Positions 1 through 49,794 of a stretch of DNA of 64,000 nucleotides are shown piece by piece. Within the stretch, counting starts at the first letter, position 1, and every line of letters starts with the position of its first letter. The DNA comes from Minisyncoccia bacterium. Lineage in GTDB: Bacteria > Patescibacteriota > Minisyncoccia > UBA6257 > 2-01-FULL-56-20. Both the position numbers and the translations under genes were made by a program. The stretch lies in NCBI GenBank assembly GCA_050008535.1, contig JBEKML010000001.1, forward strand, positions 391,050-455,049, in the 5' to 3' direction. Below the pieces are notes generated by a model, which was not told where the DNA came from, did no database searches, and saw nothing but the letters and a program-made list of their open reading frames with translations.

Positions 1-1450
1 AAACGATCACGTCGCGGCTGCTTTTATCGCCATATACCTTTATGGTGTTGTGGGCGCCCATTTCTTTCGCGATGCTGCCCGCCTTCGCGAAGCGTTTGTC
101 GCCCATTGCTTTTACCTTTTCGGCCTCATCGATCGCGATGCCGTTCTCGTCGTGTTCGTAGCTGTCAACTTTTACGACCGCGCCCGGCGTGCCGGGGAAG
201 ATCATCGGCGAAATGCCGTCCGGGGTGATCTTGTACCGGCCGTAATTTTCAGGGACGCCCTCCGCGATCTTTCCGCGTTCTACGGCGATCTTTGCCGGGT
301 TGGCCGCGGAAGTCTCCAAACTCTCCGAAAGTTGGCGGTCCAAAAGGACGATGACGGGCGTCTGATATTTCCACGCGAAGTTCAGCGCCTCCGCGCCGCA
401 GGCGAACGCTTCTTTGGGATCTCCCGGCGCGAGCACGATCCGCGGGAACTCGCCGTGGCCGGAATGAAGGACGAACTGCAGATCTCCCTGGCTCGTGTAC
501 GTAGGTGTGCCGGTCGCGGGGGCGTAGCGCTGCGAAACGGCGATCGCAAGCGGGAGCTCCGCCATGCCGCTCAATGCGAACGCCTCCTGCATCAGGGCAA
601 AACCGCCGGTCGCCGTGCCCACCGCGGCGCGCTTGCCGGCATAGGCAGCGCCCAACGCCATATTTATGACCGCGAGCTCGCTTTCTGGCTGGACGACTTT
701 GATCTTATATTCCTTCTGCTGTTTCGCGAGAAAATGGAGGATACTGGACGACGGCGTCATCGGGTAGGCGAAATAGAAATCCAATCCCGCCGCTACAAGG
801 CCCTTCGCGAACGCCGTGTTGCCATCAGTGAGCTCCGCTTCCTCTTTCCGTTGCGGCGTCAGTTTTTTCCAGTGGCGGAATTGCAATTTTTCCAAATGCT
901 CATATCCCATCTCGGCAAGCTTAAGGTTGGCATCCAGGCTTTTATTCTTGAAAACATCGTTCAACACCGCCTTCATGTTGTCCAAAGAAAATCCAAGAAG
1001 ATAGCAAGCGGCGCCGAGCGCGGCGGATGTGCGCGTGATGGGCGGCGCGCCAATCTTTTGCGCGAATTCTTTCATGGGAAGCACGACGGCATTCGCGCCG
1101 AACCGTTCCAGATCCTCTTTTTCAAAACTGTCCGCGAGGACGACGGCGTCTTTGTGGAGTTCGTTCCTGTGAATTGTGAGCGTTTCCTCGTTGAGCGCCA
1201 CAAGCACGTCAAGCGCCGAGTGGTCGCTGTGGATCTTTTCTCCGGAGAAGCTCACGCGGCTGAAATTGTGCCCGCCGCGGATGAGCGAGGGATAGTCAAA
1301 CGAAACAAAGGCCTCAAAGCTGAAGTCGTTCAAGAGTTCCGCCAGGCTTGCGCCCGCTTCGCGCGCGCCGTCGCCTGCCGCGCCGCCGATGCCGACGGTG
1401 AAAATGTTCTCGTGAGGGGATGCTTTCTTTGTTGGAGAGCCGAACAGCAT
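1..1450 (-). CDS. 2-oxoacid:ferredoxin oxidoreductase, fused gamma-alpha subunit (5' part only; gene runs off window start)
   Basis: Own translation of minus strand from ATG at 1448-1450: MLFGSPTKKASPHENIFTVGIGGAAGDG... (gamma-subunit glycine motif), then ...FYFAYPMTPSSSILHF... (YPxTPSS hallmark of PFOR/KOR alpha). Absent from the ORF track because it has no in-window stop; the track's 50..1468(+) ORF is its antisense shadow. TATAAT on the minus strand at about 1463-1468. Confidence 0.75.
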   Translation of the reverse strand, partial: MLFGSPTKKASPHENIFTVGIGGAAGDGAREAGASLAELLNDFSFEAFVSFDYPSLIRGGHNFSRVSFSGEKIHSDHSALDVLVALNEETLTIHRNELHKDAVVLADSFEKEDLERFGANAVVLPMKEFAQKIGAPPITRTSAALGAACYLLGFSLDNMKAVLNDVFKNKSLDANLKLAEMGYEHLEKLQFRHWKKLTPQRKEEAELTDGNTAFAKGLVAAGLDFYFAYPMTPSSSILHFLAKQQKEYKIKVVQPESELAVINMALGAAYAGKRAAVGTATGGFALMQEAFALSGMAELPLAIAVSQRYAPATGTPTYTSQGDLQFVLHSGHGEFPRIVLAPGDPKEAFACGAEALNFAWKYQTPVIVLLDRQLSESLETSAANPAKIAVERGKIAEGVPENYGRYKITPDGISPMIFPGTPGAVVKVDSYEHDENGIAIDEAEKVKAMGDKRFAKAGSIAKEMGAHNTIKVYGDKSSRDVIV

Positions 1451-1516
1451 GGTATATGGAAATTATAGCATCCCCGCCGCTTGCACGGTGAACATTAAAA
1501 AATCATTAAACAATTC

Positions 1517-1544
1517 TTGACGGTTAGCTTCCGAGTGCTATCAT
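1517..1544 (+). promoter_or_regulatory. sigma70-like promoter for hydrogenase operon (TTGACG-16nt-TGcTATCAT, extended -10)
   Basis: Seen in sequence: ttgacg gttagcttccgagtgc tatcat. It is followed by a roughly 250-nt leader before the small-subunit ATG. Confidence 0.4.
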
Positions 1545-1802
1545 ATTCTTGAAAGCAAGAGTCCGCAGAGCGGCGGACCATATATCCTTGTTTGGTATGC
1601 AAGTGGCCATTTCGGTGGCCGTTTGCATTTTAAATAGTTTTAATCACCTTTTTGTTAGCGTGACAATGCCCGTGGTCTTGGGCCCGTCGTTCATACGAGT
1701 AGGATTTTGCTTTTACCAAACAAGAGAAGCGGGTGCAAATCCCGCCGGGTCCACGGGCATCCGGATGGGCAATGAAGCAAAATTTCATGATATGATGAAG
1801 CA

Positions 1803-2297
1803 ATGGCGCCGGCGGAAAAATTGAAGATCGGTTGGTTTTCGTTCTCCTGCTGCGAAGACAACACGATCGTGATGACGGAGGTGATGAACGACCATTGGGC
1901 CGAGTGGAAAAAGAAATTTGAATTCCGGCACGCGCGGGTTTTGCAGTCAAAGAACGTGATGGATGAGTTTGATATTGCTTTTATTGAAGGCGCGGTCGCC
2001 TCGCCCGCGCAGGAAGAAAAGTTGAAAGACATCCGGAGGCGGTCAAAAAAGCTCGTGGCGATCGGCGCGTGTGCGGTGACGGGCCTGCCATCCGGCCAGA
2101 GAAACTCTTTCACCGACGCGCAAAAGGAAGCGATAGAATTTCTGACCGCGCGGTTCGGCGCACTGCCGAAGGTGCTTAAGGTTGCGGATGTGGTCACAGT
2201 TGACGCCGAAGTGCCGGGCTGCCCGATGGATCCGCAGAACTTTCTCAAGGTCCTTGAGAGCGTCGTGGCCGAGCTTGAGAACAAAATAATTCCATAA
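1803..2297 (+). CDS. [NiFe] hydrogenase small subunit, minimal (Oxidored_q6/NuoB-like, proximal-cluster-only type)
   Basis: 164 aa. KIGWFSFSCCEDNTIVM..GACAVTG..VPGCPMDP: four Cys (CC...C...CP) arranged as in the proximal 4Fe-4S site of HoxY/NuoB-like small subunits. Lies directly upstream of the large subunit. Confidence 0.8.
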   Translation: MAPAEKLKIGWFSFSCCEDNTIVMTEVMNDHWAEWKKKFEFRHARVLQSKNVMDEFDIAFIEGAVASPAQEEKLKDIRRRSKKLVAIGACAVTGLPSGQRNSFTDAQKEAIEFLTARFGALPKVLKVADVVTVDAEVPGCPMDPQNFLKVLESVVAELENKIIP

Positions 2298-2301
2298 TCC
2301 C

Positions 2302-3594
2302 ATGCACACGTTTGATCTCACGATGGAGGGTATCACGAAGGTAGAGGGCAGCGCCGGGCTTTCATTGCACGTGGAGGAGGGGAAAGTGACCGATGTGAAG
2401 TTCGCGATCACCGAATACAAGCGGTTCTTCACCGAGGCGATGAAGGGGAAATCGGTCATGGCCATTCCGCAGCATCTCGCGCGGATCTGCGGCACCTGCT
2501 CCAACGCGCACCTCATGTGCAGCATTGAAGCGTGCGAACACGCCTTGGGGATAGAACCCACCGCGCAGACAAAAACGCTCCGCGCGCTCACCATGCACGG
2601 CCTTATGATCCGCGACCACGCCCTACACCTTTATCTTTTTTCAATGCCCGATATTTTCGGCAAGGATGCGTTCCTTGATTTTGACGAGAACGTGGAGGCG
2701 GAGCACCAGTTGCTGCACGACGGGTTTGGCGTGAAGGGCGCCGGAAATTTCCTCGCGACGCTCGTCGCCGGGCGGAGCGTCCACGCAGTGTATCCAACGA
2801 TCGGCGGGTTCCTCAAATTCCCCGATGAAGCGGGCGTCGCGGAGGCGATCAAAAAACTGGAATCCGTCCGCCCCGCAGCGCTCCGGCTCATAGAAATTTT
2901 CAAAAACGCGCCGTTCCATTTTGATCGCAAGACGCAGTTCATGGCGCTCGTGCCGGATGGAAGCTACGGCTACATAGACGGCACTATTATCACGAGCAAG
3001 GGGGAGGTTTTTCCCGAGCGGGAATTCCACAGGCACTTGGAGCAGGTTGTGCTCCCGTATTCACAGGCATCGGCGTATCTTTATGGCGGTGAGGGCTATA
3101 TGGTGGGCGCGCTCGCGCGGCTCAGCATTGCAAAAGACAAGCTGCACCCGAGAACAAAGGAATCACTCGGCGATGTTCTGGATCTTTTCCCCTCCACCGA
3201 CATTTTTTACAACAACCTCGCGCAGGCGATAGAGATATTACATTCTATCGATGAATCAATAGATATTTTGAAGAACAATAAATTTGTGCCGGAGCCGATA
3301 ATAAAAGTTCCCAATCGCGAGGCCACGGGCGTGGGCGTTGTGGAAGCCCCGCGCGGCACGCTCTATCACAAAGTGGTGATCGGCGCGGACGGCCTGGTGA
3401 AAGAAGGGGAGGTAATCGTGCCCACCGGCCAGAACCAGGTGAATATTGAGAAGGACATCGCGACGCTCGTGCAAGGACTTTTACCCGACACGCCAAAAGA
3501 AAAAATAGAATTTGAAATAGAGAAGCTTGTCCGCGCCTACGATCCCTGCATGAGCTGCGCGGCGCATTTCCTCAAGGTGAAGTGGGACGCATAG
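2302..3594 (+). CDS. [NiFe] hydrogenase large subunit (group 3-like)
   Basis: 430 aa. N-terminal RICGTCSNAH (L1 CxxC) and C-terminal DPCMSCAAH (L5 CxxC-H), followed by an 8-aa extension (FLKVKWDA). Confidence 0.9.
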   Translation: MHTFDLTMEGITKVEGSAGLSLHVEEGKVTDVKFAITEYKRFFTEAMKGKSVMAIPQHLARICGTCSNAHLMCSIEACEHALGIEPTAQTKTLRALTMHGLMIRDHALHLYLFSMPDIFGKDAFLDFDENVEAEHQLLHDGFGVKGAGNFLATLVAGRSVHAVYPTIGGFLKFPDEAGVAEAIKKLESVRPAALRLIEIFKNAPFHFDRKTQFMALVPDGSYGYIDGTIITSKGEVFPEREFHRHLEQVVLPYSQASAYLYGGEGYMVGALARLSIAKDKLHPRTKESLGDVLDLFPSTDIFYNNLAQAIEILHSIDESIDILKNNKFVPEPIIKVPNREATGVGVVEAPRGTLYHKVVIGADGLVKEGEVIVPTGQNQVNIEKDIATLVQGLLPDTPKEKIEFEIEKLVRAYDPCMSCAAHFLKVKWDA

Positions 3595-3619
3595 ACAGGT
3601 GCGCCCCATTCGCTGAATA

Positions 3620-3648
3620 TTGACAATATATAGATATTACCTTATTAT
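3620..3648 (+). promoter_or_regulatory. sigma70-like promoter (TTGACA-17-TATTAT) plus strong SD (AAGGGAGG) for the UPF0182 gene
   Basis: ttgaca atatatagatattacct tattat; aagggagg lies 7 nt before the ATG at 3740. Confidence 0.45.
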
Positions 3649-3739
3649 ATGGCTGTCCATAAGGACAAAGCTGTTCTTTCCAAACCGAAAAAGATTTCAT
3701 TTCGGCATTGAATTTCTGGAAGAAAAAGGGAGGTAAGAC

Positions 3740-6613
3740 ATGTTGGGATTCCTGATGTTCCTGACGTGGTTCGTTCTCTCCATCCCCCCGCTCGGGCGGG
3801 CGGTATGGAAACTGATCAAACTCTACCGGGACGAGGACCGGGACGAGGAACCGCTCAAGCGGGCATACCGCTCCTTGGGCCTCACTATTCTGTGGGCCGT
3901 GCTCGTGATCGTTGGCTTGTGGGCCCTCGCCTGGCTGATGGACCTGCGCGTCGAATCCCTGTGGTTCGCGGACGCGGGCTATGCCGGACGCTTCTGGACC
4001 CAGTTCAACACCGAGCTCGTCCTCTACTGGATCGGGTTCGTGCTCGCCGGCGCGTTCTGTTTCACGAACGTGACCATGATCGCCAAGCTGAACGCCGGTT
4101 CCAAAACGGCGCAGCGGGTGATCCTCGGAGTCGGCGGGGCGCTCTCGCTTATCGCCGCTAACGTGTTCGGCAGCGTCGCCGAGGGCATTTGGCAGAGATT
4201 GCTGTTGTTCCTGAACGGTCAGCCGTTCGGCAAGCTCGACCCGGTGTTCTCAAAGGACGTCGGGTTCTATGTCTTTACCATGCCGTTCATCGACGGTCTG
4301 ACGTCGTTCGCGTACTGGCTGATAGGCCTGACCATGATCGCCTGCTTCGCTTTCTACGCGGTGAGGTATGGCGTAGCCAAGGCCGGCTCTTGCAACAACT
4401 ATGATTTCGGGGCCAGCAAGCGCGCAGAGCTCGCGGAACAAGCCGGGGTTGTGCTCAACCACGGCCTCTCACATGTCTCAGCTCTGGGCATCCTGTTTCT
4501 CCTGGACCTCGCAGTCGACACATTCCTGGACCGCTACAAGATCCTGTACTCCACGCACGGCAACGTCTATGGCGCCGGCTGGACGGATCTCAACGTGCGG
4601 ATCCCGGCCTACTGGGGGTTCATGATTGTCCTGGCCATCGGCATCGCGTTCCTCGCGACCTCGGTCCTATCGAAGTCGCACCGCCACACCGTGAAGAATG
4701 CCATCTTCGGTTTCGGCGGGACGCTCCTGTTCTGGCTCTTGGCCGTCGTCATCACACCTGCGATATTCCAATCGGCATATGTAAGCCCGAACGAGTTGCA
4801 GGTTGAGAGGCCCTTTATCCAGCGGGAGATCGACTACACCAGTGCGGCATACGGGCTCGATCGCATCAAACCCCTGGATTTCCCCGTGAAGGACGGCCTG
4901 ACGCGGGCCAATCTGACCCAAGACGCCGAGACCCTGGAAAGCGCGCGGCTCTGGGATTGGCGTGTCCTCCTGGCCACCAACCACCAGCTTCAAGCCTTCA
5001 AGCCGTACTACAGCTTCAAGGATGTGGACGTGGTGCGCTACGATGTCCACGGCAAGAAGGTCCAAGTGCTGTACAGCGGGCGCGAGTTGGACGTGGAGAA
5101 GCTCCCCGAGTCGGCGAAGACCTGGCAGAACATGCATCTGGTCTACACGCACGGCTTCGGCGGCACCGCCAATCCTGTGAACGATTTCACTTCGGACGGC
5201 CTGCCGGATTACTGGGTGAAGGACCTGCCGCCCGTCTCGAGATACCCCGAACTGGAGATGAAGCAGCCTCGCATCTATTTCGGCGAGGCGACCACGAACC
5301 ATGTGTATGTCAATACCCACATGCAGGAATACGACTACCCCGTGGGCGACGGCAACGCCTGGTTCCAGTATGACGGGCCGGCGGGCATTCCGCTCGGCGG
5401 CTTCTTCCGACGACTGTCCATTGCCTGGAAATTCGATGGTTTCTGGAGAACCTGGTCTGAGCAGCTCGGGCCGGAGAGCCGCATTCTGTTCAATCGCGAC
5501 ATCGCGACCCGCACCGAGAAGCTCGTGCCGTTCCTGTGGCACGAGGAGGACACCTACCAAGTCATCGCGGACGGGCAACTGTGGTTCATGCGCGACTTCA
5601 ATTCGGTGACCGAATGGTATCCCTACTCGGCACCGCACAACGGCGTGAACTACATGCGTAATTCGGTGAAGTCGGTGACGAACGCGTATACCGGCAAAAC
5701 CGATTTCTACGTGTTCGAGCCGAACGACCCCGTCATCCGCACCTATCAGGCGATCTTCCCGGGACTTTTCAAGCCAATGTCCCAGATGCCTGCATCGCTT
5801 CGCAAGCATGTCAGGTACCCGCAGGGGCTGCTTGAGGTCCAGGGAGACATGTATGCCTGGTATCACATGAAGGATGCCACTGCCTTCTACAACAAGGAGG
5901 ACATGTGGCAGTACGCCAAGCAATTCTCCCCGAGCATCAACAAGCCGGCGCAGGTTGAAGCGTACTATCTCGTGATGTCCTTGCCCGATCGCCACTCGCC
6001 GGAGTACGTGCTGGTACTGCCCTTCACTCCGAAGTCCACCGACGCGGAGCACCAGCGCAATAATCTGGAGTCCTGGCTCGCCGCCCGCTGTGACGGCGAC
6101 CACTATGGGGAGCTCATGCTTTACCGATTCCCCACGACCAAACAGGTTCAGGGTCCGCTCCAGGTTGGGATTAGGATGAACCAGGACGAGACGCTATCCA
6201 AGGATTTCAGCCTCTGGAACCAGCAGGGTTCCAAGGTGGTCCTGGGCGACATGCGTGTCCTGCCTCTTTCCGACCACCGATTGCTGAACGTCCAGGCCAT
6301 CTATCTGGAGAGCGAGGGCGCGAAAATGCCTCAGCTCAAGTACGTGGTTGCCGCCTCCGGCGACCAGATGGTCTACGAGAAGACGTTCTCCGCTGCACTG
6401 GAGCGGTTAATCGGCGCCGGGCCGACGCTCATGCCGCCTCCGGCTACCATCACCGCCGTTTCCGTACCCGCGTCCCTCGACCTGACCCAGGAGATACTGG
6501 GCCGGCTCGACAAGTACTTCGGGTTGCTCCAGCAGGGCAAGTTCTCGGAGGCCGGGAACGAACTCCAGGCTATCCGGGACGAACGGGCCAAAATGAAATC
6601 GACCAAAAAGTGA
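3740..6613 (+). CDS. UPF0182 family large membrane protein
   Basis: 957 aa with an N-terminal multi-TM region and a large soluble part. Recalled similarity to mycobacterial UPF0182 (Rv3193c-like): WF..GY, VYTHGFGG (cf. VYTHGNGF), NYMRNSVKSVTNAYTGKT (cf. SYIRNSVKATVDAYDGTV), HVRYPQGLLEVQ (cf. HLRYPEDLFKVQ), ILFNRD. Visibly higher GC than the flanks. Confidence 0.85.
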   Translation: MLGFLMFLTWFVLSIPPLGRAVWKLIKLYRDEDRDEEPLKRAYRSLGLTILWAVLVIVGLWALAWLMDLRVESLWFADAGYAGRFWTQFNTELVLYWIGFVLAGAFCFTNVTMIAKLNAGSKTAQRVILGVGGALSLIAANVFGSVAEGIWQRLLLFLNGQPFGKLDPVFSKDVGFYVFTMPFIDGLTSFAYWLIGLTMIACFAFYAVRYGVAKAGSCNNYDFGASKRAELAEQAGVVLNHGLSHVSALGILFLLDLAVDTFLDRYKILYSTHGNVYGAGWTDLNVRIPAYWGFMIVLAIGIAFLATSVLSKSHRHTVKNAIFGFGGTLLFWLLAVVITPAIFQSAYVSPNELQVERPFIQREIDYTSAAYGLDRIKPLDFPVKDGLTRANLTQDAETLESARLWDWRVLLATNHQLQAFKPYYSFKDVDVVRYDVHGKKVQVLYSGRELDVEKLPESAKTWQNMHLVYTHGFGGTANPVNDFTSDGLPDYWVKDLPPVSRYPELEMKQPRIYFGEATTNHVYVNTHMQEYDYPVGDGNAWFQYDGPAGIPLGGFFRRLSIAWKFDGFWRTWSEQLGPESRILFNRDIATRTEKLVPFLWHEEDTYQVIADGQLWFMRDFNSVTEWYPYSAPHNGVNYMRNSVKSVTNAYTGKTDFYVFEPNDPVIRTYQAIFPGLFKPMSQMPASLRKHVRYPQGLLEVQGDMYAWYHMKDATAFYNKEDMWQYAKQFSPSINKPAQVEAYYLVMSLPDRHSPEYVLVLPFTPKSTDAEHQRNNLESWLAARCDGDHYGELMLYRFPTTKQVQGPLQVGIRMNQDETLSKDFSLWNQQGSKVVLGDMRVLPLSDHRLLNVQAIYLESEGAKMPQLKYVVAASGDQMVYEKTFSAALERLIGAGPTLMPPPATITAVSVPASLDLTQEILGRLDKYFGLLQQGKFSEAGNELQAIRDERAKMKSTKK

Positions 6614-6712: not shown

Positions 6713-6741
6713 AGCCCGCTCCGGCGGCTGGATTCGAACTT
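6713..6741 (+). repeat. isolated copy of the tRNA-Asn 3'-end-like repeat (GCTCCGGCGGCTGGATTCGAAC)
   Basis: cccgctccggcggctggattcgaacttac. Its reverse complement contains a GTTCGAATCC T-loop-like motif but no foldable cloverleaf. Same orientation and core as the 24.7-39.6 kb repeat family. Confidence 0.5.
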
Positions 6742-7123
6742 ACTGCCCACTGAGAAATTTTTCGAGTAAGATAATTATTTTCTGGAGCGCCCCAGCTTCG
6801 TCCATGGCTCCCGGCACGCCGATTATTTTTATTTTCTTGAACTTGCCGAGCTTTTGGAGATATCGGAGGTTCGTGAGCGCGTCAAAATCGTGCATCGTGA
6901 CGCGCGGCACGGCGGCGAACTTTGCAAGATCGTCAAAAACAGTCACTTCGTTGATGCCTTCTACGGTATCAATAATAGTCAGTTCTTCGGGCACGTCCCA
7001 CTCTTCGTTCGGGTCTTTTACTTCAAATTGCACTTGCGGGAATCGTTTCTGAAGTTCGGGAAGGATCCGAAGCGGCAATGAGTCGGCGGGAAGGTCGGGA
7101 TTGCCGAAAACATAAACGATCAT
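6740..7123 (-). CDS. hydrogenase maturation protease (HycI/HybD/FrhD family)
   Basis: Start at MIVYVFGNPDLPADSLPLRILPEL... (127 aa), typical of the endopeptidase N-terminus. The track ORF 6740..7204 extends 27 codons upstream. Confidence 0.7.
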   Translation of the reverse strand: MIVYVFGNPDLPADSLPLRILPELQKRFPQVQFEVKDPNEEWDVPEELTIIDTVEGINEVTVFDDLAKFAAVPRVTMHDFDALTNLRYLQKLGKFKKIKIIGVPGAMDEAGALQKIIILLEKFLSGQ

Positions 7124-7226: not shown

Positions 7227-7679
7227 CTAGGATTCTACTTCTTCGATCTCTACGACCACCCGGCGGTGGAAGTAGACGAACTGGCCGCGCGAGAGGGGGA
7301 GATGGTACTGGTTGACCGCGTTGAGCGTCTCTCCTTCGCAAGCGAGGACTACGACTGTGCCGTTGCTTGCTTCGGCCACTTTGGCGCGGCGCACGCGGCA
7401 CTCGCCTTCGTGGCCGTGGTGATGGTGCCAGAAATCGGCTACCGTGGCCACCGCCCATTGGGCCAGTCCATTTTGGACCGCGTATTCGCGCAATCTCTCG
7501 ACTGCGTTTGGGAAACATCTTTCAAGAAGCGGACACGTCGGTTGCTCGTTTCTTCTGACGAGCTGGTCAAGCTCGATCAGGTCTTTCTCGGCGATCTTCC
7601 AACGTCTCCCATTGGTGACCACCACGCCGGTGGTGGCGCAAGGGAATGTGTAACGGAGGAACAATAGTTCTCCGGTCAT
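7227..7679 (-). CDS. hypothetical protein with His cluster (FWHHHHGHEGEC), co-directional with the maturation protease
   Basis: Start MTGELLFLRY... (150 aa) chosen inside track ORF 7227..7832. No family recognised. Confidence 0.5.
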   Translation of the reverse strand: MTGELLFLRYTFPCATTGVVVTNGRRWKIAEKDLIELDQLVRRNEQPTCPLLERCFPNAVERLREYAVQNGLAQWAVATVADFWHHHHGHEGECRVRRAKVAEASNGTVVVLACEGETLNAVNQYHLPLSRGQFVYFHRRVVVEIEEVES

Positions 7680-7722: not shown

Positions 7723-8454
7723 TCAAATCGTCCGATTCGCCAAGTCGAGGTGGCGTAGCGTGTACTTGCGGAGCATCGCGGCCTCGCGTTCTGTGATGAC
7801 CTCGCAGGGGACACTCCAATGGATGGAAACAAGGTCGCCGGGCTTGATCTGCTCTATGTCGTACTCCGCCTCCAGCCGCCGCGCGAGTTTTTTCTCCGCG
7901 GGCGCGCCGAGAAAAAGTTTTCCGTTGGCATAGAGCAGCGGCTCGGCAAGCACGGTGATCGCGGGACCACTTACGTTTTTTACCCTTCCCCAACTCACGC
8001 GGCACTCGTCTATTTCGGAAAGCGTCCTCTCCCGCTCGCCGCGAGCCGCCTGCAACCAAACATCCAGAACGTGGAACGAATGATGCGGCACGGCTCCCTG
8101 CGCGATTTTTTCTTCAACGAGTGAAAAAGATTTTGCGCCGAGCTTTTTCTTTATTTTCTGGCCCTCAACAAGGTGGTGGTAAAACTTCCGCTGGCCGATA
8201 TTTTCCAAAAGTTCGTTGCCGATCCAGTATGCCTCTACCACGCGGTCATCAAAAGGATCGCGGATGCCGTTCGCTTCCGCGATGTGGCGGAGGTAGGGGA
8301 ACATTGTCTTGAATTGGCTCAACAATTTCTCAAGTCCCGGATCGCTTGCACCCTCTTCAATGTAGGCGCGGATTTCGCTCGCCGCATCCGGGCCGCAATA
8401 ATGGAGCCGGTTCGGTCCGAAAGCATATCGGCTGCAGCGGATGATGCCGTCCAT
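7723..8454 (-). CDS. hypothetical protein (243 aa)
   Basis: Start MDGIIRCSRYAFGPN... chosen inside track ORF 7723..8610. No family recognised. Same strand as 7227..7679 and hycI. Confidence 0.5.
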   Translation of the reverse strand: MDGIIRCSRYAFGPNRLHYCGPDAASEIRAYIEEGASDPGLEKLLSQFKTMFPYLRHIAEANGIRDPFDDRVVEAYWIGNELLENIGQRKFYHHLVEGQKIKKKLGAKSFSLVEEKIAQGAVPHHSFHVLDVWLQAARGERERTLSEIDECRVSWGRVKNVSGPAITVLAEPLLYANGKLFLGAPAEKKLARRLEAEYDIEQIKPGDLVSIHWSVPCEVITEREAAMLRKYTLRHLDLANRTI

Positions 8455-8470
8455 ATGATAAGATAATAGT

Positions 8471-9280
8471 ATGAATGAGACGCCACTCCAAGCATTGCTC
8501 AACCTTTCGGGAAAAACCGCGATCGTGACGGGCGGGGCGGTCGGCATTGGTTTGGGGATCAGCAGGCGCCTCGCCGAGGCGGGCGCGAACGTGCTCATTG
8601 CCGACATCAACGCGGAAAATGCCGAAAAGGCAAAGCAGGAGCTGCTCGCGGGCGGTTGGAAGGCGGAGGCGGTGCATGCCGACGTTTCAAATGAAGCAAA
8701 CGTTCAAGCAATGGTTCAAAAAGCGGTGAGCGTATTCGGGGGCGTGGACATTCTTGTGAACAATGCCGGCATCTATCCGAGCGTCCTTTTGATGAATATG
8801 ACCGCCGCCGATTTTGAACGAGTGCTTGCGGTCAATTTGGAAAGCGTGTTCCTGTGTACGAAAAGTGCTGCGGAGCAAATGATCAAACAGGGACGCGGCG
8901 GGAGAATTATCAATATCACTTCTATTGATGCGTTGCACCCGTCATCGGCGGGACTCGCGCACTACGATGCTTCAAAGCACGGCGTGTGGGGGTTCACAAA
9001 GAATGTGGCGCTGGAACTCGCGCCGCATAATATCTGGGTGAATGCCGTGGCGCCTGGCGGCATCGCCACGCCCGGCGTTGCCGGAATGCAGAAAAAGGCG
9101 CAGGTGCCCGCGGGCGTGGACATGGAAGCAATGCTCAAAAATTTCCTCGCGCGGATCCCGATGAAGCGGATGGGGGAACCCGACGATATCGGGAAGGCAG
9201 TGCTCTTCCTTGCTTCCGAAATGTCTTCCTATATGACCGGAAGCCAGATCGTGGTGGATGGCGGTGTGTTGCTCGCCTAA
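8471..9280 (+). CDS. SDR family oxidoreductase
   Basis: TGGAVGIGLG (Rossmann), NNAG, YDASKHGV (YxxxK). Confidence 0.85.
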   Translation: MNETPLQALLNLSGKTAIVTGGAVGIGLGISRRLAEAGANVLIADINAENAEKAKQELLAGGWKAEAVHADVSNEANVQAMVQKAVSVFGGVDILVNNAGIYPSVLLMNMTAADFERVLAVNLESVFLCTKSAAEQMIKQGRGGRIINITSIDALHPSSAGLAHYDASKHGVWGFTKNVALELAPHNIWVNAVAPGGIATPGVAGMQKKAQVPAGVDMEAMLKNFLARIPMKRMGEPDDIGKAVLFLASEMSSYMTGSQIVVDGGVLLA

Positions 9281-9334: not shown

Positions 9335-10615
9335 CTACCGGAGCGCGAAGAACATTGCCACTGCCGCTGCTCCCACAAGAATGAACGTCGCCCATACGAG
9401 AATATTTGAAAGTGTCCCGCTCTTGTGCTCGCCCATTATTTTCTCGTTTCGGGCGATCTTCGCGATAATGAATATCAATGGTACCGAGATGACGCCGTTC
9501 GCGACGGCGGTGAAGACAAGCGCCTGCATCGGGTCAATGCCCACAAAGTTGATTATGAGGCCGATGACGGTGGCGATTGTGATGATGCCGTAGAAGCCGT
9601 GGGCGCGCTTCAGTTTTAGGTTGAGGCCTTCTTTCCAGTTCAGCGCTTCCGAGAGCGCGTAGGAGGCCGATGCGGAAAGGACGGGGACCGCGAGGAGCCC
9701 GAGCCCCATGATGCCGATCGCGAAAATGAGCTTTGCGATGAACCCGGCATAGGGGAAGGTGGTAACCAATGGCTCGAGCGCTTTTGCGGCGTCGGCGGCG
9801 GTCGCGACGTTCGTCACACCGTTCTTATTGAGCACGGTGGCGGCAACAACGATGATGCACCACGTTGCGGCCTGCGAAGAAAGCATGCCAAGGAAATTAT
9901 CCAGCCGCAGCGCACGCATGAAGGATTTTGTAAGATGCGGTTTTCCATCGCGTATCAAGTGCCTCTTTCGTTCTTCTTCCACTTCTTCGGATGCTTCCCA
10001 GAAGAACATATAAGGGGAAATGGTCGTGCCGATCACGCCGATGATGATAAAGAGGAATGCAAAGTTGAACTCAATGTGCGGGATAAACGTTGCTTTAAGA
10101 ATGGTTCCCCACGGTTCCTGCACGAGAAATACCGTGATGATGTAGGAAAAAAGCGCGAGCGCGAGCCATTTCAAGATTTTTGCGTACGTGCGGTACGAAG
10201 TGAATATTTCAAGGATAAGAATGACGGCGGTGAAGAGCAGTGTGAGGATGACGAAGGGCAGGGGAACAATAAGCTGCGCGGCGGCACCCATCGCGCCCAG
10301 GTCCGCGCCGATGTTTATGGTATTCGCGATCAAAATAAGGGCGAGCGTCCCGTAAAGTATTTTTCTGTCGTAGTGCTCCTTGATGACGGCGGCAATGCCC
10401 TTCCCCGTCACCGCGCCTATCCGGGCGCACGCTTCCTGGACGGCGGTCATGAAGGGGAGCGCGAAGAGGGCGGTCCAAAGCTGTCCGTAGCCGAATTGCG
10501 CGCCGGTTTGCGTATACGTGGCGATCCCCGACGGATCGTCGTCCGCCGCGCCGGTGATGAGGCCTGGCCCCACGATCTTCACAATTGACTTGGTCTTTCT
10601 GCTGAATTTTGCCAC
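9335..10615 (-). CDS. mntH: NRAMP family divalent metal (Mn2+/Fe2+) transporter
   Basis: GPGLITGAADDDPSGIATY signature with multi-TM topology. Confidence 0.85.
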   Translation of the reverse strand: MAKFSRKTKSIVKIVGPGLITGAADDDPSGIATYTQTGAQFGYGQLWTALFALPFMTAVQEACARIGAVTGKGIAAVIKEHYDRKILYGTLALILIANTINIGADLGAMGAAAQLIVPLPFVILTLLFTAVILILEIFTSYRTYAKILKWLALALFSYIITVFLVQEPWGTILKATFIPHIEFNFAFLFIIIGVIGTTISPYMFFWEASEEVEEERKRHLIRDGKPHLTKSFMRALRLDNFLGMLSSQAATWCIIVVAATVLNKNGVTNVATAADAAKALEPLVTTFPYAGFIAKLIFAIGIMGLGLLAVPVLSASASYALSEALNWKEGLNLKLKRAHGFYGIITIATVIGLIINFVGIDPMQALVFTAVANGVISVPLIFIIAKIARNEKIMGEHKSGTLSNILVWATFILVGAAAVAMFFALR

Positions 10616-37692: not shown

Positions 37693-39483
37693 TTATGCCA
37701 CTTCTGCTTGGTAGCACTGCTCGCAGTAGACGATTTCCGGGCGGTCGGGGGCATAGGTGGTTTCGAATTTGTTGGGGCAGGGTTCACTACCGTGAAAATG
37801 AGAGGCGGTATTTATGTAGCTACTTGCCTTTACTCCAGCGCATGCGCACGTACGCTTATAAAGCTGCGGAACATTGCGCCAGCTGATACGCTCTACGTGG
37901 CGGCAATTGAAACACAGCTTCGGCAACGGCAAATTCATTTTCCTATAGAACTGCAATTCTTGCTGAGTGATGCGGAAAACCGTAGGACAATTAGCTCCAC
38001 ATTGGAGTCCGGCATGATCGCCGGTTTCGTCGTGCTTGCACTGGACTATCTCTTGTATGATGTCGTCACCAGTTTCGGCAATGGTGTCGGGCAAGGCGGA
38101 AGCGGCCTTGGTTGGTTCATATTTTCTCTTCTCGGGAACGCGCCAGTTGAACCCCATGTGCTCAACTTGACTCCTCGGAAGTTGAAAATATTCGTATGCT
38201 TGGGATTCATTGAACCCGAAAGGGCTCATGTCGGGCGGGAAAAACTCGCCGTATTTATATATCCTACCCAGCGTATCTACGTAGGGCGTCTCGTTCATAT
38301 GCGCGATGATCTTTGGAATAAGTGATTCGTATTGTTCTTTAGAATACTGCTTATTGAGGATGCAATACTGCGCATTGCGCAGCCCCACGCAGCCGAACAC
38401 TTCCCGCGAGTTGCGGCATGTTATGGAATATCGTACATCGCTCACTGTTTCGCAATCGAACGAAAAATATACTCCGCGCAGGCCTTGTCCGCAGCAGCTT
38501 ATTTCGTAGTTGCGCTCAATATCGACGCCTGAGGAGGTAACGTCCATGCAGTCCCGAATCGGATTGTAGATGACGCTTTGGCAATGTGTGCAGTTTTGCA
38601 CCTCATTCGTAAAAAAACAATTGCGCACCTGGGAGGAGTTGTATATGTAATCACCGGTGCAACCCGCGTCCTGCAGCCCGTGCCGAAAACGGAACGGAAA
38701 CGAAAGCCAAATCCTCTCCGCCTCTTTTTGCATTCTTTCCAATCCCAGCCTTGAATGCAGGTTGAATCCCGCCACTTTTTTTCTATAGTTTTCTTTCGAA
38801 TGCGGCTGGTTAAAAATGTAGTAACTTTTGTTGCGCAAGCCGGTACACCCCACGCAATCGTTGCACCCAACACAATCCTGGCTGAACCATACCTCACGGC
38901 AGCCGGTACAATTCCTGGAAAAGAAGGTCTTATAACAGTTCGTGGTGTTAATCACGTAATAGCAGAGTTCACACAGTTTACAATTGATAGTGTCAAAACA
39001 TTGCTTGCTCTTTTGTAGGGTAACCCCATATGCACTGTCTTCAGAAAACCCTGCATCGAAGCATAGATATGTATTTTTCATATCCAGACCCATGCTGTAA
39101 TCGCTGTTTACCTGGTTGCGGGACATGATGTAGGTGAATGGCATAACATTGAACAAATCCCGTATTTGATCGAAAAACGGCCGCGTAAAATCATATTCCC
39201 GCGCATACGATTTAGGATCCCAAGCGTCGCTCCACCAGTAGTCTCGATCGAAAGGGGGCATGGGCGCATTGGGGGGCACCATGCTGAAAATTTTTTTGCC
39301 AGTGCCAGCGCAGGTGCGTTCGTAAAGATAACGGAAGTTGCGAAACGCCATCCGCCGCATGGCCCGGCATTTCCAGCACCATGTTGGTGGAGGCACGTTG
39401 AGGCTTTTATAGAACGTAAGATCTTCTGGCTCAATCGCAAAATTATTTTTGCAGTTCTGACACGCGCGCGTTTCCTGTTCCAT
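37693..39483 (-). CDS. cysteine-rich protein with N- and C-terminal FmdB-like zinc-ribbon motifs (paralog A)
   Basis: 596 aa. N-terminal CQNCKNNFAIEPEDLTFYKSLNVPPPTWCWKCRAMRRMAFRN; the same motif recurs near the C-terminus. Central Cys repeats (CTGCREVWFSQDCVGCNDCVGC...). The last 23 aa, ETTYAPDRPEIVYCEQCYQAEVA, are identical to paralog 58255..60072. Confidence 0.7.
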   Translation of the reverse strand: MEQETRACQNCKNNFAIEPEDLTFYKSLNVPPPTWCWKCRAMRRMAFRNFRYLYERTCAGTGKKIFSMVPPNAPMPPFDRDYWWSDAWDPKSYAREYDFTRPFFDQIRDLFNVMPFTYIMSRNQVNSDYSMGLDMKNTYLCFDAGFSEDSAYGVTLQKSKQCFDTINCKLCELCYYVINTTNCYKTFFSRNCTGCREVWFSQDCVGCNDCVGCTGLRNKSYYIFNQPHSKENYRKKVAGFNLHSRLGLERMQKEAERIWLSFPFRFRHGLQDAGCTGDYIYNSSQVRNCFFTNEVQNCTHCQSVIYNPIRDCMDVTSSGVDIERNYEISCCGQGLRGVYFSFDCETVSDVRYSITCRNSREVFGCVGLRNAQYCILNKQYSKEQYESLIPKIIAHMNETPYVDTLGRIYKYGEFFPPDMSPFGFNESQAYEYFQLPRSQVEHMGFNWRVPEKRKYEPTKAASALPDTIAETGDDIIQEIVQCKHDETGDHAGLQCGANCPTVFRITQQELQFYRKMNLPLPKLCFNCRHVERISWRNVPQLYKRTCACAGVKASSYINTASHFHGSEPCPNKFETTYAPDRPEIVYCEQCYQAEVA

Positions 39484-43472: not shown

Positions 43473-43930
43473 TCTGGACATTGATCGGGATTGTGGTGGT
43501 CGTGGTTGCGCTCGTCACGGCGTATTTGGGGATTTTTCAAAAAGCCAATCAGCCGCTTGCGAAAAACGAAGCAAAGATCGGCAACGCCGTTTTTGAAGTA
43601 GAGATCGCCGCAACGATGACCGAGCAGGCCCGCGGACTTTCGTTCCGTCCGAGCTTGGGCGAGAACCAGGGGATGCTTTTTCTTTTCGGCAAGCCCGCGG
43701 CCCAGAGTTTTTGGATGAAAGACATGAATTTTCCGATCGATATTATCTGGATCGGCGGGGATGCCGTTCTCGGTTTTGCGCAAAACGCGGCGCCCCAGCC
43801 CGGCGTGCCGCTTTGGGGGCTCACCTTATATCGATCGCCGGACGGTACGGACAAGGTGCTTGAGGTGAACGCCGGCACGGTCGCGAAAGACGGCATAAAA
43901 GTGGGCGATAGGGTGCAGATTGGTATATAA
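43469..43930 (+). CDS. DUF192 family protein
   Basis: MIWTLIG... TM anchor then ...MLFLFGKPAAQSFWMKDMNFPIDIIWIGGD... DUF192-like. Start chosen inside track ORF 43436. Confidence 0.6.
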   Translation: MIWTLIGIVVVVVALVTAYLGIFQKANQPLAKNEAKIGNAVFEVEIAATMTEQARGLSFRPSLGENQGMLFLFGKPAAQSFWMKDMNFPIDIIWIGGDAVLGFAQNAAPQPGVPLWGLTLYRSPDGTDKVLEVNAGTVAKDGIKVGDRVQIGI

Positions 43931-43937
43931 TAGAAGG

Positions 43938-44969
43938 ATGGCAAAGGCACGCATTGCGATAAACGGATTCGGACGGATAGGCCGGTTGTTTTTCAGGGCC
44001 GCTTTTGAGTCGCCGGATCTGGAGATCGTGGCGGTGAACGACTTGGGCGATGTGGAAAATCTTGCGTACCTTCTGAAATATGATACGGTCTACGGTCGGT
44101 ACGGAAAAGACGTAAAAGCGGACCTTCCGAACGGAAAGCTTGTGGTCGACGGAACGGAAATAACGTTTTTGCAGGTGAAAGACCCGACGCAGCTCCCCTG
44201 GGGAGCGCTCAAGGTTGATATCGTCATTGAATCAACGGGATTGTTCGAGTCGTACGAGGGGAATAAAGTGCATTTGGCCGCCGGGGCGAAACGCGTGGTC
44301 ATAACGGCTCCGGCAAAAGATGAGGACGGGCCGGACGGAAAAACCGTTTTGATGGGGATTAACGAAGACGATTTGAAAACATGCGCGATCACTTCCAACG
44401 GCTCCTGCACGACGAATTCGGCGTCGCCCGTGATCCAGGTGCTTTCGGAGAACCCCGGCATCGTGAAGGCGATACTCTCCACCGTGCATTCCTATACCGC
44501 GACGCAGAGCATTGTGGATGGCCCCGTCCGCGGCGGAAAGGATTATCGGCGCGGCCGTGCGGCGGCGCAGAATATCTCGCCGTCCACGACGGGCGCCGCG
44601 ATCGCCGTCACGCGGGCCATTCCTTCACTCAAAGGAATGTTTGACGGTATGGCGTTCCGGGTGCCCTCCATTAACGGCTCCATTTCCGACATCACGTTCG
44701 TCGCGAAGCGGAAAACAAGCGTGGAAGAAATAAACCGGATCCTGACGGACGCCGCCGCCTCGCCCCGCTGGCAGGGGATCTTGAAAGTGACGGACGAACA
44801 GCTGGTTTCCTCGGACATTGTGGGCGATCCCTACGGCGCGATCGTCGACCTTGGTTTTACAAAGGTCATTGACGGCGATCTCGTGAAAGTGCTTTCGTGG
44901 TACGACAACGAGGCCGGTTATGTTGCGACGCTCGTGAAGCACGTAGAGAAAATAGCGGCGATTCTCTAA
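43938..44969 (+). CDS. gap: glyceraldehyde-3-phosphate dehydrogenase
   Basis: ARIAINGFGRIGR (NAD binding) and SCTTNS (catalytic Cys). The track ORF begins at a TTG at 43920; the ATG at 43938 is the likelier start. Confidence 0.9.
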   Translation: MAKARIAINGFGRIGRLFFRAAFESPDLEIVAVNDLGDVENLAYLLKYDTVYGRYGKDVKADLPNGKLVVDGTEITFLQVKDPTQLPWGALKVDIVIESTGLFESYEGNKVHLAAGAKRVVITAPAKDEDGPDGKTVLMGINEDDLKTCAITSNGSCTTNSASPVIQVLSENPGIVKAILSTVHSYTATQSIVDGPVRGGKDYRRGRAAAQNISPSTTGAAIAVTRAIPSLKGMFDGMAFRVPSINGSISDITFVAKRKTSVEEINRILTDAAASPRWQGILKVTDEQLVSSDIVGDPYGAIVDLGFTKVIDGDLVKVLSWYDNEAGYVATLVKHVEKIAAIL

Positions 44970-45427
44970 TGACCATCTATCTCGGCGCCGACCATCGCGG
45001 GTTTAACTTGAAGGAGCGGCTGAAGCAGGAGTTGAAAAACGAGGGGTACGACGTGGTGGATTGCGGCGCGGCGGAGCTTGTGCCGGATGACGACTATCCC
45101 GATTATGCGTCGGCGGTTGCGGCGAAGGTGGCCGCAGCGCCGGAGGTGGGGCGCGGCATAGTGATCTGCGGGTCGGGATTCGGCACGGATATCGTTGCGA
45201 ACAAGTTCGACGGCGTGCGTGCGGGACTTGCCATGTCCGCCGATCATGCGTATCAGGGACGGCACGACGACGACCTGAATGTTCTTGCCCTTGCCGCGGG
45301 GTTTGTGGATGAAGCGGCCGCCCTGAACATCGTGAAAGTTTTTTTGACGACGCCTTTTGCGAAAGAGGAACGGTACGCGCGCCGGCTTCAAAAGATCGGG
45401 AAGATAGAGCTTGATAGGCAAAAATGA
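44969..45427 (+). CDS. rpiB: ribose-5-phosphate isomerase B
   Basis: MTIYLGADHRGF..., GICGSGFG (RpiB/LacAB). Its ATG overlaps the gap stop (TAATG). Confidence 0.85.
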   Translation: MTIYLGADHRGFNLKERLKQELKNEGYDVVDCGAAELVPDDDYPDYASAVAAKVAAAPEVGRGIVICGSGFGTDIVANKFDGVRAGLAMSADHAYQGRHDDDLNVLALAAGFVDEAAALNIVKVFLTTPFAKEERYARRLQKIGKIELDRQK

Positions 45428-45428
45428 T

Positions 45429-47015: not shown

Positions 47016-47031
47016 AACTTCATTAAAAATC

Positions 47032-47574: not shown

Positions 47575-47598
47575 CCCGGATAAAGTAAAACAAAAACA

Positions 47599-48591: not shown

Positions 48592-48595
48592 TTCC

Positions 48596-48754
48596 GTGAT
48601 CAAAAAGATCGGCAGAAAGTATATTGTGCTTTCGGAGACGACCGGACGCTCATTTGGCACCTATAAAACAAAGGCGGAGGCGCAGAAGCGCCTGCGGCAA
48701 ATTGAATTTTTCAAACATTTGAAAGGAAAAACGGCGACGAAGCGCCGCGCATAA
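48596..48754 (+). CDS. small basic protein (52 aa, GTG start), hypothetical
   Basis: Own translation: VIKKIGRKYIVLSETTGRSFGTYKTKAEAQKRLRQIEFFKHLKGKTATKRRA. No ATG and a weak RBS. Confidence 0.25.
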   Translation: MIKKIGRKYIVLSETTGRSFGTYKTKAEAQKRLRQIEFFKHLKGKTATKRRA

Positions 48755-48771
48755 GGTATAATAGAAGCACC

Positions 48772-49773: not shown

Positions 49774-49794
49774 CGCGGCAAATTTTCCTGCTCC

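Follow-up and report, generated by a model that had tools for sequence, protein, structure and literature searches.

A hyd2-type [NiFe] hydrogenase core in a Minisyncoccia bacterium and its candidate ferredoxin reductase and ferredoxin partners

The hydrogenase genes and their relatives

The DNA considered here is a stretch of 64,000 nucleotides from a Minisyncoccia bacterium (contig JBEKML010000001.1, hereafter the window), in which two adjacent genes encode a [NiFe] hydrogenase (Table 1). A preliminary description of the window had recognized this two-gene core by the RICGTCS and DPCMSCAAH motifs of the large subunit, and it is confirmed here. The stop codon of the small-subunit gene is separated by 4 nt from the ATG of the large-subunit gene. 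Divergently oriented, with a spacer of 352 bp between the two starts, lies a gene for a 2-oxoacid:ferredoxin oxidoreductase (OFOR) with fused gamma and alpha subunits; its POR and POR_N domains agree with the assignment made earlier. This gene runs off the window. Locus L001 matches the window at 100% identity and extends the same contig 7.7 kb further upstream. It contains the whole divergent operon, in which the OFOR gamma-alpha gene (578 aa) is accompanied by those for OFOR beta (264 aa) and for an acetyl-CoA synthetase of the ADP-forming type (ACS, 696 aa). This OFOR is of the two-subunit type without a delta-ferredoxin domain. On the 3' side of the large-subunit gene, a UPF0182 gene on the same strand is followed by three minus-strand genes encoding a 127-aa protein, a His-rich 150-aa protein and a DUF6390 protein. 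For comparison we used 46 loci found by scanning a genome collection with the large subunit; they represent numerous Parcubacteria lineages as well as two DPANN archaea. The open reading frames (ORFs) of these related loci, about 1 Mb in total, were clustered de novo, and the same sequence was scanned for motifs. The small- and large-subunit genes adjoin in every locus that holds both. The divergent operon for OFOR gamma-alpha, OFOR beta and ACS is located upstream in 22 of the 46 loci, and the genomic link between hydrogenase and OFOR is real.

Table 1. Features of the window, with positions counted from its first nucleotide.
Feature	Position	Strand	Basis
OFOR gamma-alpha, N-terminal 483 aa (full length 578 aa)	1..1450, runs off window	-	Pfam POR 9e-25, POR_N 3.2e-50
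Sigma-70-like promoter match, TTGACG, 16-nt spacer, TG-extended TATCAT	1517..1544	+	Consensus match only
tRNA-like cloverleaf, 74 nt	1680..1753	+	Rfam tRNA 33.4 bits vs gathering score 29
[NiFe]-hydrogenase small subunit, hyd2 type, 164 aa	1803..2297	+	Pfam Oxidored_q6 1.3e-18
[NiFe]-hydrogenase large subunit, hyd2, group-3b-related, 430 aa	2302..3594	+	Pfam NiFeSe_Hases
UPF0182 membrane protein, 957 aa	3740-6613	+	Pfam 6.5e-239
Putative miniature HycI-like maturation endopeptidase, 127 aa from ATG at 7123	6740..7123	-	Family Pfam HycI matches, synteny
His-rich 150-aa protein (HHHHGHEGEC), short DUF6390 paralogue	7227..7679	-	hhalign vs DUF6390
DUF6390 protein, 243 aa, candidate accessory factor	7723..8454	-	Pfam DUF6390 5.9e-61
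GAPDH	43920-44969		By eye
RpiB	~44966-45427		By eye
Ribulose-phosphate-epimerase-like domain fused to N-terminal half of transketolase	45411-47015		By eye
Small membrane protein, splits transketolase halves	47032-47574		By eye
C-terminal half of transketolase	47599-48591		By eye
PfkB kinase	48772-49773		By eye
Class II aldolase	49795-50673		By eye

The large subunit has both pairs of Ni-Fe ligands, in R61-I-C63-G-T-C66-S and D414-P-C416-M-S-C419-A-A-H422, and both motifs align with those of the solved proteins 5yxy_A and 9nez_D. H422 is followed by an 8-residue C-terminal tail, FLKVKWDA. With these ligands, this tail and a cognate HycI-like protease gene nearby, the protein is predicted to be competent for catalysis and to be matured by cleavage of the tail. 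Its closest solved relatives are the alpha subunits of the group 3b enzymes of Thermococcus kodakarensis (E 2.6e-63) and Pyrococcus furiosus (SHI, 5e-60), ahead of Mvh, Hox and Frh. The best NCBIfam matches are also 3b alpha subunits (ShyA/HydA), with scores below the equivalog cut-offs (254 vs 700 and 231 vs 880). On these best PDB and NCBIfam matches the enzyme can be classified as group-3b-related. The protein MGC9968500.1 (Minisyncoccia bacterium) at NCBI is identical to the large subunit of the window. At E<=1e-10 there are 5,008 homologues, a set that includes other hydrogenase groups; among the 120 best clusters, every named one is from Patescibacteria.

The comparison with the group 3b enzymes (P. 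furiosus HydABGD and T. kodakarensis Hyh; PDB 5yxy and 9nez) can be extended to the whole core. The large subunits (428 vs 430 aa) are homologous from end to end and share their Ni-binding motifs, homology of the small subunits extends over the N-terminal domain, and both enzymes are cytoplasmic. Unlike its group 3b counterpart, the small subunit of the window is devoid of the C-terminal domain of about 100 aa, has CCEDN instead of SCYGC, and is not accompanied by HydB and HydG. The C-terminal domain of 3b small subunits carries the medial and distal clusters. Of the P. furiosus SHI delta subunit (261 aa) the window protein covers residues ~3-148 only, and with 164 aa and 4 Cys it differs from the group 3b delta subunits of ~240-260 aa with three Fe-S clusters. 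Comparison with these proteins indicates that it holds only the proximal-cluster domain, the domain for the medial and distal clusters having been lost. A frameshift or truncation, considered as another reason for the short length, was rejected because the 120 closest homologues have a median of 164 aa (155-216 aa) and contain PF01058 only; in total 1161 small-subunit homologues were found at E<=1e-5.

The preliminary description was thus right about the length of the small subunit, its four Cys and its single cluster. The Cys set is however not the usual one. The four residues are C16, C17, C90 and C140, and the first ligand motif is C16-C17-E18-D19-N20 instead of the CxxC...C...C set. In the alignment with P. 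furiosus SHI delta, C17 corresponds to the first Cys of SCYGC and N20 occupies the position of the second. Among 121 sequences C16, E18, D19, C90 and C140 are invariant, and C17 is conserved in 116 and replaced by Ser in the other five. More distant relatives have the intermediate form TCDEGC or the canonical form GCEGC of this motif. The fourth ligand of the cluster could be either the second of the tandem Cys, as in NuoB, or Asp19; the replacement of C17 by Ser in 5 of the 121 homologues is a reason why Asp19 may be the ligand. NuoB/Nqo6, which carries cluster N2 of complex I, belongs to the same Oxidored_q6 family and also has a single cluster, of the [4Fe-4S] type. Its first motif is CC-x-x-E, with ligation by tandem cysteines, and it resembles C16-C17-E-D of the window protein. 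Unlike the case of NuoB, the partner here is a true Ni-Fe large subunit and C17 is not invariant; the sequence match between the two proteins is weak and partial (E 1e-3 to 0.07).

All these properties agree with the "hyd2" clade reported by Jaffe et al. (2020, BMC Biol 18:69, PMC7304191), which is specific for bacteria of the candidate phyla radiation (CPR), long-branched and related to group 3b. In that study the hyd2 small subunits had a "mean 164 amino acids", the beta and gamma subunits were not co-located, some members adjoined a PF07992 flavoprotein as well as FeS and "hypC-like" families, and the "function remains uncertain". The locus of the window has a CPR host, a 3b-related large subunit, a small subunit of ~164 aa, no beta or gamma subunit nearby, and PF07992 and Fe-S neighbours in its cluster. 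Since it shows every feature of the published description, we regard it as a rediscovery of hyd2, from which nothing essential distinguishes it at the sequence level. Valentin-Alvarado et al. (2024) treat the four-subunit hyd1-type only. What the present comparison adds to PMC7304191 are how often the flavoprotein and a ferredoxin accompany the core, the gene fusions, the embedding with OFOR and ACS, the putative HycI-like protease with the DUF6390 paralogues, and the CC-E-D motif. The hyd2 enzymes are very widespread among the Patescibacteria/CPR, a large uncultivated share of the bacteria whose redox metabolism is poorly understood.

The same hydrogenase cluster is also present in two archaeal metagenome-assembled genomes (MAGs), L044 (an unclassified archaeon) and L046 (Micrarchaeota), both DPANN, with large-subunit identities of 47-55%. 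These copies suggest transfer between CPR and DPANN. The taxon labels of several other MAGs with typical Parcubacteria-type loci look doubtful, namely L014, L015, L021, L022 and others (labelled Saccharibacteria) and L050 (labelled Gammaproteobacteria).

Ferredoxin reductase and ferredoxin genes

The partner subunits known from related hydrogenases were not found. Neither HydB or HydG, as encoded with group 3b enzymes, nor HoxF or HoxU, the diaphorase encoded with HoxYH in group 3d, nor a poly-ferredoxin is present among the ORF translations of the window, which were read by eye and included genes hidden by antisense ORFs. A six-frame scan of the 64 kb detected no ferredoxin-type CxxCxxCxxxC motif. 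HydB and HydG are also absent from L001, from the overlapping locus L071 and from the gene clusters conserved among the 46 related loci, and no protein of the HoxF/HoxU type with Complex1_51K or NADH_4Fe-4S is encoded here or in these loci. To this extent the absence of canonical beta/gamma or HoxFU subunits noted earlier is borne out, in the window, in the 7.7 kb further upstream and in the ~1 Mb of related loci.

The conclusion that the enzyme has neither a diaphorase nor an Fe-S partner did not hold. The related loci encode a flavoprotein family of ~410-430 aa with the Pfam domains Pyr_redox_2 and Reductase_C/Rubredoxin_C, which is the architecture of ferredoxin reductases (hereafter FdR). 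In the de novo clustering the FdR ORFs fell together with the small subunit because real fusions join both. FdR is encoded in 30 of the 46 loci found via the large subunit; 35 of the 46 include 7 kb or more of upstream sequence, and all 30 are among these. Its gene is directly upstream of the small-subunit gene in 11 loci, and in six of them (L032, L033, L034, L037, L039 and L040) the FdR stop and small-subunit start codons overlap, an arrangement of translational coupling; in 17 loci it is situated just past the divergent ACS-OFOR operon. FdR is almost always preceded by a gene for a ferredoxin of 86-103 aa (Fer4_13/15; 89 aa in the conserved pair), closest to the single-cluster ferredoxins of Thermotoga maritima and P. 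furiosus. All 17 copies read CIGAASC...CP and thus have only three Cys. The genes nifS, nifU and nfu commonly precede the ferredoxin gene.

Queries with FdR, ferredoxin, NifS and NifU gave no match in the window or L001. Both candidate partners are nevertheless encoded on this contig. The FdR of this genome is P0512, NCBI MGC9968490.1 "FAD-dependent oxidoreductase [Minisyncoccia bacterium]", in the 90%-identity cluster of P0250; it shares a 535-kb contig with the large subunit MGC9968500.1, and its accession is ten numbers earlier. L071, which overlaps L001 over 5,693 bp at 100% identity, gives the gene order: nifS, a 190-aa gene, nifU, nfu, ferredoxin, FdR, five inserted genes, the reversed ACS/OFOR operon, and the small and large subunits. 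In window coordinates FdR extends from about -10305 to -9073 and the ferredoxin from about -10577 to -10308, which places the pair upstream of the window, ~9.1 kb from its base 1 and ~10.9 kb from the small subunit. The earlier reading without a partner was an artefact of the window edge, because the two genes lie ~9 kb outside the 64 kb. It had been foreseen that partners might turn up elsewhere on the contig, and they did, although not through an operon split by assembly.

The five-gene insert at 11136-16744 of L071 (~ -8.8 to -3.2 kb) encodes proteins of 70, 665 and 197 aa, a DUF2130 protein and an OLD-like AAA/TOPRIM nuclease. In L069, from a strain that is 95% identical, the same FdR-ACS junction has another insert, with a UvrD-like helicase (1892-5338). 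No insert is present in the closest sister lineage, L051, where FdR directly abuts ACS. The junction looks like a hotspot for defence islands.

Gene fusions are the strongest evidence at hand on the partner of the small subunit. Three clusters consist of FdR fused to the small subunit: P0256 (622 aa), P0289 (579 aa) and P0294 (615 aa, identical with L049). P0289 is identical on four contigs from different samples, in an operon nifS-nifU-nfu-Fd-FdR::SSU-LSU (Fd, ferredoxin; SSU and LSU, small and large subunit) that is followed by the protease-like and DUF6390 genes. In L044, which has no FdR, a TrxR-like flavoprotein is fused to the small subunit instead (491 aa), as it is in P0365 (500 aa). 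In P0368 (702 aa) the small subunit is joined to a NuoF-like FMN module, and the genes that follow encode a large subunit of 430 aa, a protein of 132 aa and DUF6390. P0470 and P0508 are fusions of the small to the large subunit. Because the single-cluster small subunit has been recurrently and independently fused to flavoproteins of the pyridine-nucleotide type, such a flavoprotein is most likely its physiological partner.

The FdR family itself belongs with the ferredoxin reductases of the PdR/BphA4/ArR family by its domains, by its fold and by the absence of a redox-active disulfide. The closest solved proteins by sequence are rubredoxin and ferredoxin reductases and the FAD subunit of tungsten aldehyde oxidoreductase. 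In an AlphaFold2 (AF2) model of the P0289 fusion (pLDDT 89.6, pTM 0.71), the first ~410 residues superpose on ArR, PdR, BphA4 and TodA with target-normalised TM-scores of 0.88-0.92 (Foldseek). In the PdR/Pdx, BphA4/BphA3, TodA/TodB and ArR chains of class I P450 and ring-hydroxylating dioxygenase systems, with the same domains and fold, the reductase gene is likewise paired with a small ferredoxin gene, and the logic of transfer from NAD(P)H via FAD to a one-electron Fe-S carrier is common to both. Unlike in these chains, the last partner would not be an oxygenase but the small subunit of a hydrogenase, and the ferredoxin is a single-cluster protein of the Fer4_13/15 type with three Cys, not a [2Fe-2S] or Rieske protein.

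Two further systems are instructive. AorC of the AorABC tungsten aldehyde oxidoreductase (PDB 8c0z_E) is FdR-like, with E 4.5e-33 to the FdR of this genome. AorC is the NAD-coupling module of an Fe-S-wired metalloenzyme. It differs in that it docks on a polyferredoxin subunit, and in that the catalytic module here is Ni-Fe instead of tungsten and the rest of the complex is not homologous. The group 3d Hox enzymes (HoxEFUYH; PDB 5xf9) also have a short small subunit, the 189-aa chain HoxY, with the proximal cluster only; they are soluble and linked to pyridine nucleotides via a flavoprotein, and in the distant relative P0368 the small subunit is fused to a NuoF/HoxF-like module. In contrast to Hox, the partner here is a FAD ferredoxin reductase (PF07992) and not an FMN protein of the NuoF/NuoE/NuoG type like HoxFU, and the large subunit is nearer to 3b than to 3d (E 1e-63 vs 5e-33).

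Proposed electron transfer and other explanations

We consider it rather probable, from this body of sequence comparison, that the hyd2 core works with the three-Cys ferredoxin and the FAD-containing FdR, is coupled to NAD(P), and is tied to OFOR in one module. The catalytic core would consist of the large subunit and the single-cluster small subunit, as a cytoplasmic enzyme derived from group 3b that has lost the HydB/HydG diaphorase. The proximal Fe-S cluster would exchange electrons with the Ni-Fe site and pass them on to FdR and/or the ferredoxin docked on the small subunit; FdR, through its FAD, would couple to NAD(P)+/NAD(P)H and could thereby balance the NAD(P)H pool. The same ferredoxin may be fed by the two-subunit OFOR of the gene cluster. 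In a fermentative mode, which is probably the physiological one, a 2-oxoacid and CoA would give acyl-CoA, CO2 and reduced ferredoxin, the ADP-forming acetyl-CoA synthetase would convert acyl-CoA, ADP and Pi into the acid and ATP, and the reductant would leave as H2. The reverse flow, with formation of NAD(P)H driven by H2, is possible too. Maturation would involve the miniature HycI-like protease and probably also the two proteins of the DUF6390 family.

If FdR and the ferredoxin do couple the enzyme in this manner, these symbionts own a compact module for conversion of pyruvate to acetate, ATP and H2, or of H2 to NAD(P)H. This would bear on the exchange of H2 with hosts and methanogens in peat and groundwater. 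The enzyme would also be a natural example of a [NiFe] hydrogenase in which a simple FAD ferredoxin reductase has taken the place of the diaphorase module, which could interest enzyme engineers, and the association of DUF6390 with the enzyme would give this orphan family its first functional context.

Several points weigh against this reading. The coupling is deduced wholly from synteny and gene fusions, and the pTM of 0.71 of the AF2 fusion model leaves the geometry between the domains unfixed. FdR is missing in five loci with a full upstream flank (L024, L043, L044, L045 and L046). In the present genome the defence-gene insertion and the oppositely oriented operon part ferredoxin and FdR from the hydrogenase, so that, with 10.9 kb in between, they are not co-transcribed with it. 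Genes for the Hyp maturation proteins are absent from the window (HypA/C/E motifs, and ORFs read by eye) and from the ~1 Mb of related loci, where motifs for HypA to HypF gave one chance match. The potential of the ferredoxin is a further point. In a ferredoxin with three Cys, a [3Fe-4S] cluster of moderate potential is to be expected, and the Sulfolobus two-subunit OFOR reduces a [3Fe-4S] ferredoxin cluster. The ferredoxin of this cluster probably carries a [3Fe-4S] centre of fairly high potential, and because of this H2 evolution would need, and be feasible only at, low H2 pressure. Such a requirement fits a symbiont living beside H2 consumers.

A strictly ferredoxin-dependent hydrogenase, with FdR working apart as a ferredoxin:NAD(P) oxidoreductase without contact to it, is unlikely but deserves attention. 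A two-subunit OFOR without delta-ferredoxin domain needs a free ferredoxin, the gene for which almost always stands before that of FdR; in L045 the ferredoxin gene is alone and immediately before the small subunit, and in the present genome FdR is outside the hydrogenase operon. Direct contact between flavoprotein and hydrogenase is argued for by the three clusters of FdR::small-subunit fusions together with the TrxR-like and NuoF-like ones, and by the overlap of FdR stop and small-subunit start in at least six loci.

The neighbouring OFOR had been put forward as a possible direct partner. In this case the hydrogenase would dock on OFOR and electrons would pass from cluster to cluster with no soluble carrier, which could suit the tight divergent adjacency, not only because the arrangement recurs in 22 of 46 loci but because the spacers are of 12-48 bp in ~10 of them, and both enzymes are reduced to one Fe-S cluster on the relevant subunit. 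We find this improbable, and less likely than coupling through ferredoxin and FdR. At least 11 loci have the order FdR-SSU-LSU with no OFOR within 10 kb, the ferredoxin is conserved in the cluster, and among the top 150 of 734 representative small-subunit homologues (E<=0.001) no fusion of OFOR and hydrogenase occurs; every fusion found joins the small subunit to a flavoprotein or to the large subunit.

The P. furiosus and T. kodakarensis enzymes that are closest to the large subunit are sulfhydrogenases, and PF07992 includes CoA-persulfide and CoA-disulfide reductases, which match FdR more weakly. An enzyme that reduces S0 or polysulfide, an activity that has been proposed for group 3b, with the flavoprotein as NAD(P)H sulfur/persulfide reductase, is nonetheless very improbable: the FdR signature, read by eye, is Y-S-R-V-M-L-S-K and has no Cys at the redox-active position of CoADR and Npsr, the best matches are ferredoxin and rubredoxin reductases (E ~1e-38 vs ~1e-21 for persulfide reductase) in agreement with the fold, and the sulfite-reductase-like HydB/HydG are absent. 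Finally, a decaying or non-catalytic relic, no longer matured, or a sensor, as the highly reduced CPR genomes and the lack of canonical hyp genes in the 84 kb around the locus and in related loci could suggest, has hardly any likelihood given large subunits at least 71% identical over the 120 best clusters with all metal ligands intact, a C-terminal tail and dedicated protease that have been kept, the invariant small-subunit ligands C16, E18, D19, C90 and C140, and the spread of the cluster over many Parcubacteria lineages and into DPANN archaea.

Beyond the coupling of hyd2 through FdR and ferredoxin, the comparison hints at a wider proposal, which we put forward tentatively and consider somewhat doubtful. 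The hyd2 enzymes might form a distinct modular class of soluble [NiFe] hydrogenases, with a minimal two-subunit core whose proximal cluster is ligated through the CC-E-D motif (by tandem Cys as in NuoB, or by Asp), swappable pyridine-nucleotide flavoproteins to which this core connects directly and which are usually of the FdR type but also of the TrxR or NuoF type, the three-Cys ferredoxin accompanying the FdR type, and a maturation set specific for CPR and DPANN. This set would be formed by a 122-aa HycI-like protease and two metal-binding DUF6390 paralogues, and it may replace a part of the Hyp machinery.

Maturation genes, leader and other features of the window

The gene for the 127-aa protease-like protein adjoins the large-subunit gene in 38 of the 46 related loci. 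Its family, of ~122 aa, has the invariant residues G7, N8, D14, D52 and H78-D79, and 20 of its 24 members match Pfam HycI (best E 1.8e-5; window copy 0.021). On account of these matches we predict that the protein is a miniature maturation endopeptidase, which fits the C-terminal tail of the large subunit. A search of PDB sequences with the family profile gave no meaningful match.

DUF6390 adjoins the hydrogenase in 35 of the 46 loci and is also found beside the FdR-fused and NuoF-fused variants. Its invariant residues are C7, C20, C151, C217, H125, H128 and H212. The His-rich 150-aa protein has no Pfam match; aligned with DUF6390 by hhalign it is related over its full length (probability 96.4%, E 1.1e-9), and in 15 related loci the paralogue is directly 3' of the large subunit on the same strand. 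As DUF6390 and the protease family both track the core whatever diaphorase is attached to it, a role in maturation or metal delivery can be proposed for them, and synteny points to the DUF6390 pair as candidate accessory or maturation factors of the hydrogenase. Between -20 kb and +64 kb relative to the locus no hyp gene was detected. In 16 DUF6390-family members there was no match to Pfam HupF_HypC, and the conserved Cys is internal, not N-terminal. When DUF6390 and its paralogue were compared by hhalign with E. coli HypC (an approximate query sequence), only a G-x-x-V-x-x-H segment was aligned, with non-significant E values of 0.014 and 0.11. DUF6390 has no match among PDB sequences, and its single-sequence AF2 model (pLDDT 45.7) is unusable. 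In the literature we found nothing on DUF6390 and nothing on hyp genes in Patescibacteria.

In related loci the DUF6390 paralogue is usually located directly 3' of the large subunit. The position of the UPF0182 gene between the large subunit and the protease/DUF6390 genes is seen only in L001 and L068, both from this genome, and in none of the 46 related loci; L051 stops inside the large-subunit gene and is uninformative here. A gene for a short-chain dehydrogenase/reductase (SDR) at 8471-9280 (+) adjoins DUF6390, and SDRs 43-46% identical are encoded between OFOR and the small subunit in L007, L023 and L031. As neighbours of the cluster they may consume NAD(P)H. Two genes past DUF6390, at 9335-10615 (-), is encoded a divalent-metal transporter of the Nramp family (NCBIfam MntH subfamily 3.5e-33, below cut-off). 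This gene is not conserved in the other loci, and a role in metal supply to the hydrogenase is pure speculation.

The 352-bp spacer between the divergent genes contains a sigma-70-like promoter match, two hairpins and a 74-nt cloverleaf. The promoter matches at 10 of 12 positions, where ~0.9 such sites are expected by chance in the region, and is kept in one sister lineage, L051. A leader with long-range pairing had been described here. The octamers gcccgtgg (1668-1675) and ccacgggc (1751-1758) are indeed present and pair in the minimum free energy fold, as an extension or alternative of the cloverleaf acceptor stem, and the whole leader folds mildly better than shuffled controls (z = -2.1). 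A conserved leader element it is not: with nhmmer and blastn the leader matched only L051 and copies of the same genome, and in the next closest relatives the spacers from OFOR to the small subunit are 15-33 bp without any such element.

ARAGORN reports the cloverleaf as tRNA-Val(TAC), at a relaxed threshold only. The L051 orthologue scores 30.2 bits with the Rfam tRNA model and is called tRNA-Gly(GCC) by ARAGORN in a different register. The two sequences do not differ in the acceptor and T arms; in the anticodon stem two changes are compensatory and one is half-compensatory. By Rfam the anticodon is UAC in the window and UGC in L051. A functional elongator tRNA was rejected in view of the atypical structure (no G18G19, a UGCAAAU T-loop, C37), the anticodon that is not conserved and the marginal Rfam score. 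A riboswitch or other known leader RNA was rejected as well: Rfam gives only the marginal tRNA, with Atu_Ti1, RAGATH-21 and Tymo_tRNA-like far below their gathering scores. By these comparisons the element is best described as a lineage-specific tRNA-like insert and not as a conserved hydrogenase riboswitch; possible identities are a cis-acting element for processing, a degenerate tRNA and the scar left by a mobile element. Upstream of it, at 1556-1640 (+) and in L051 at ~7930-8030, two hairpins are conserved, one at 1561-1580 and one with a ~14-bp stem at ~1596-1630, followed by a U-rich stretch. In L051 an extra GC hairpin and a T-run are inserted among them, in a terminator-like manner. This region, compared in two sequences only, could encode a small RNA or act as an attenuator.

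Elsewhere in the window, two paralogous Cys-rich proteins of ~600 aa are encoded at 37693-39483 (-) and 58213-60072 (+). Their N-termini are near-identical (CQNCK..F.I.PED..FY.K..VPPPT.C..CRA.RRMAFRN) and their C-termini identical (PNKFETTYAPDRPEIVYCEQCYQAEVA); the protein encoded at 58213-60072 has no NCBIfam match. A block of sugar-phosphate metabolism genes, recognized by eye from the translations, spans 43920-50673 (Table 1). Several of these genes are masked by longer antisense ORFs when ORFs are picked naively.

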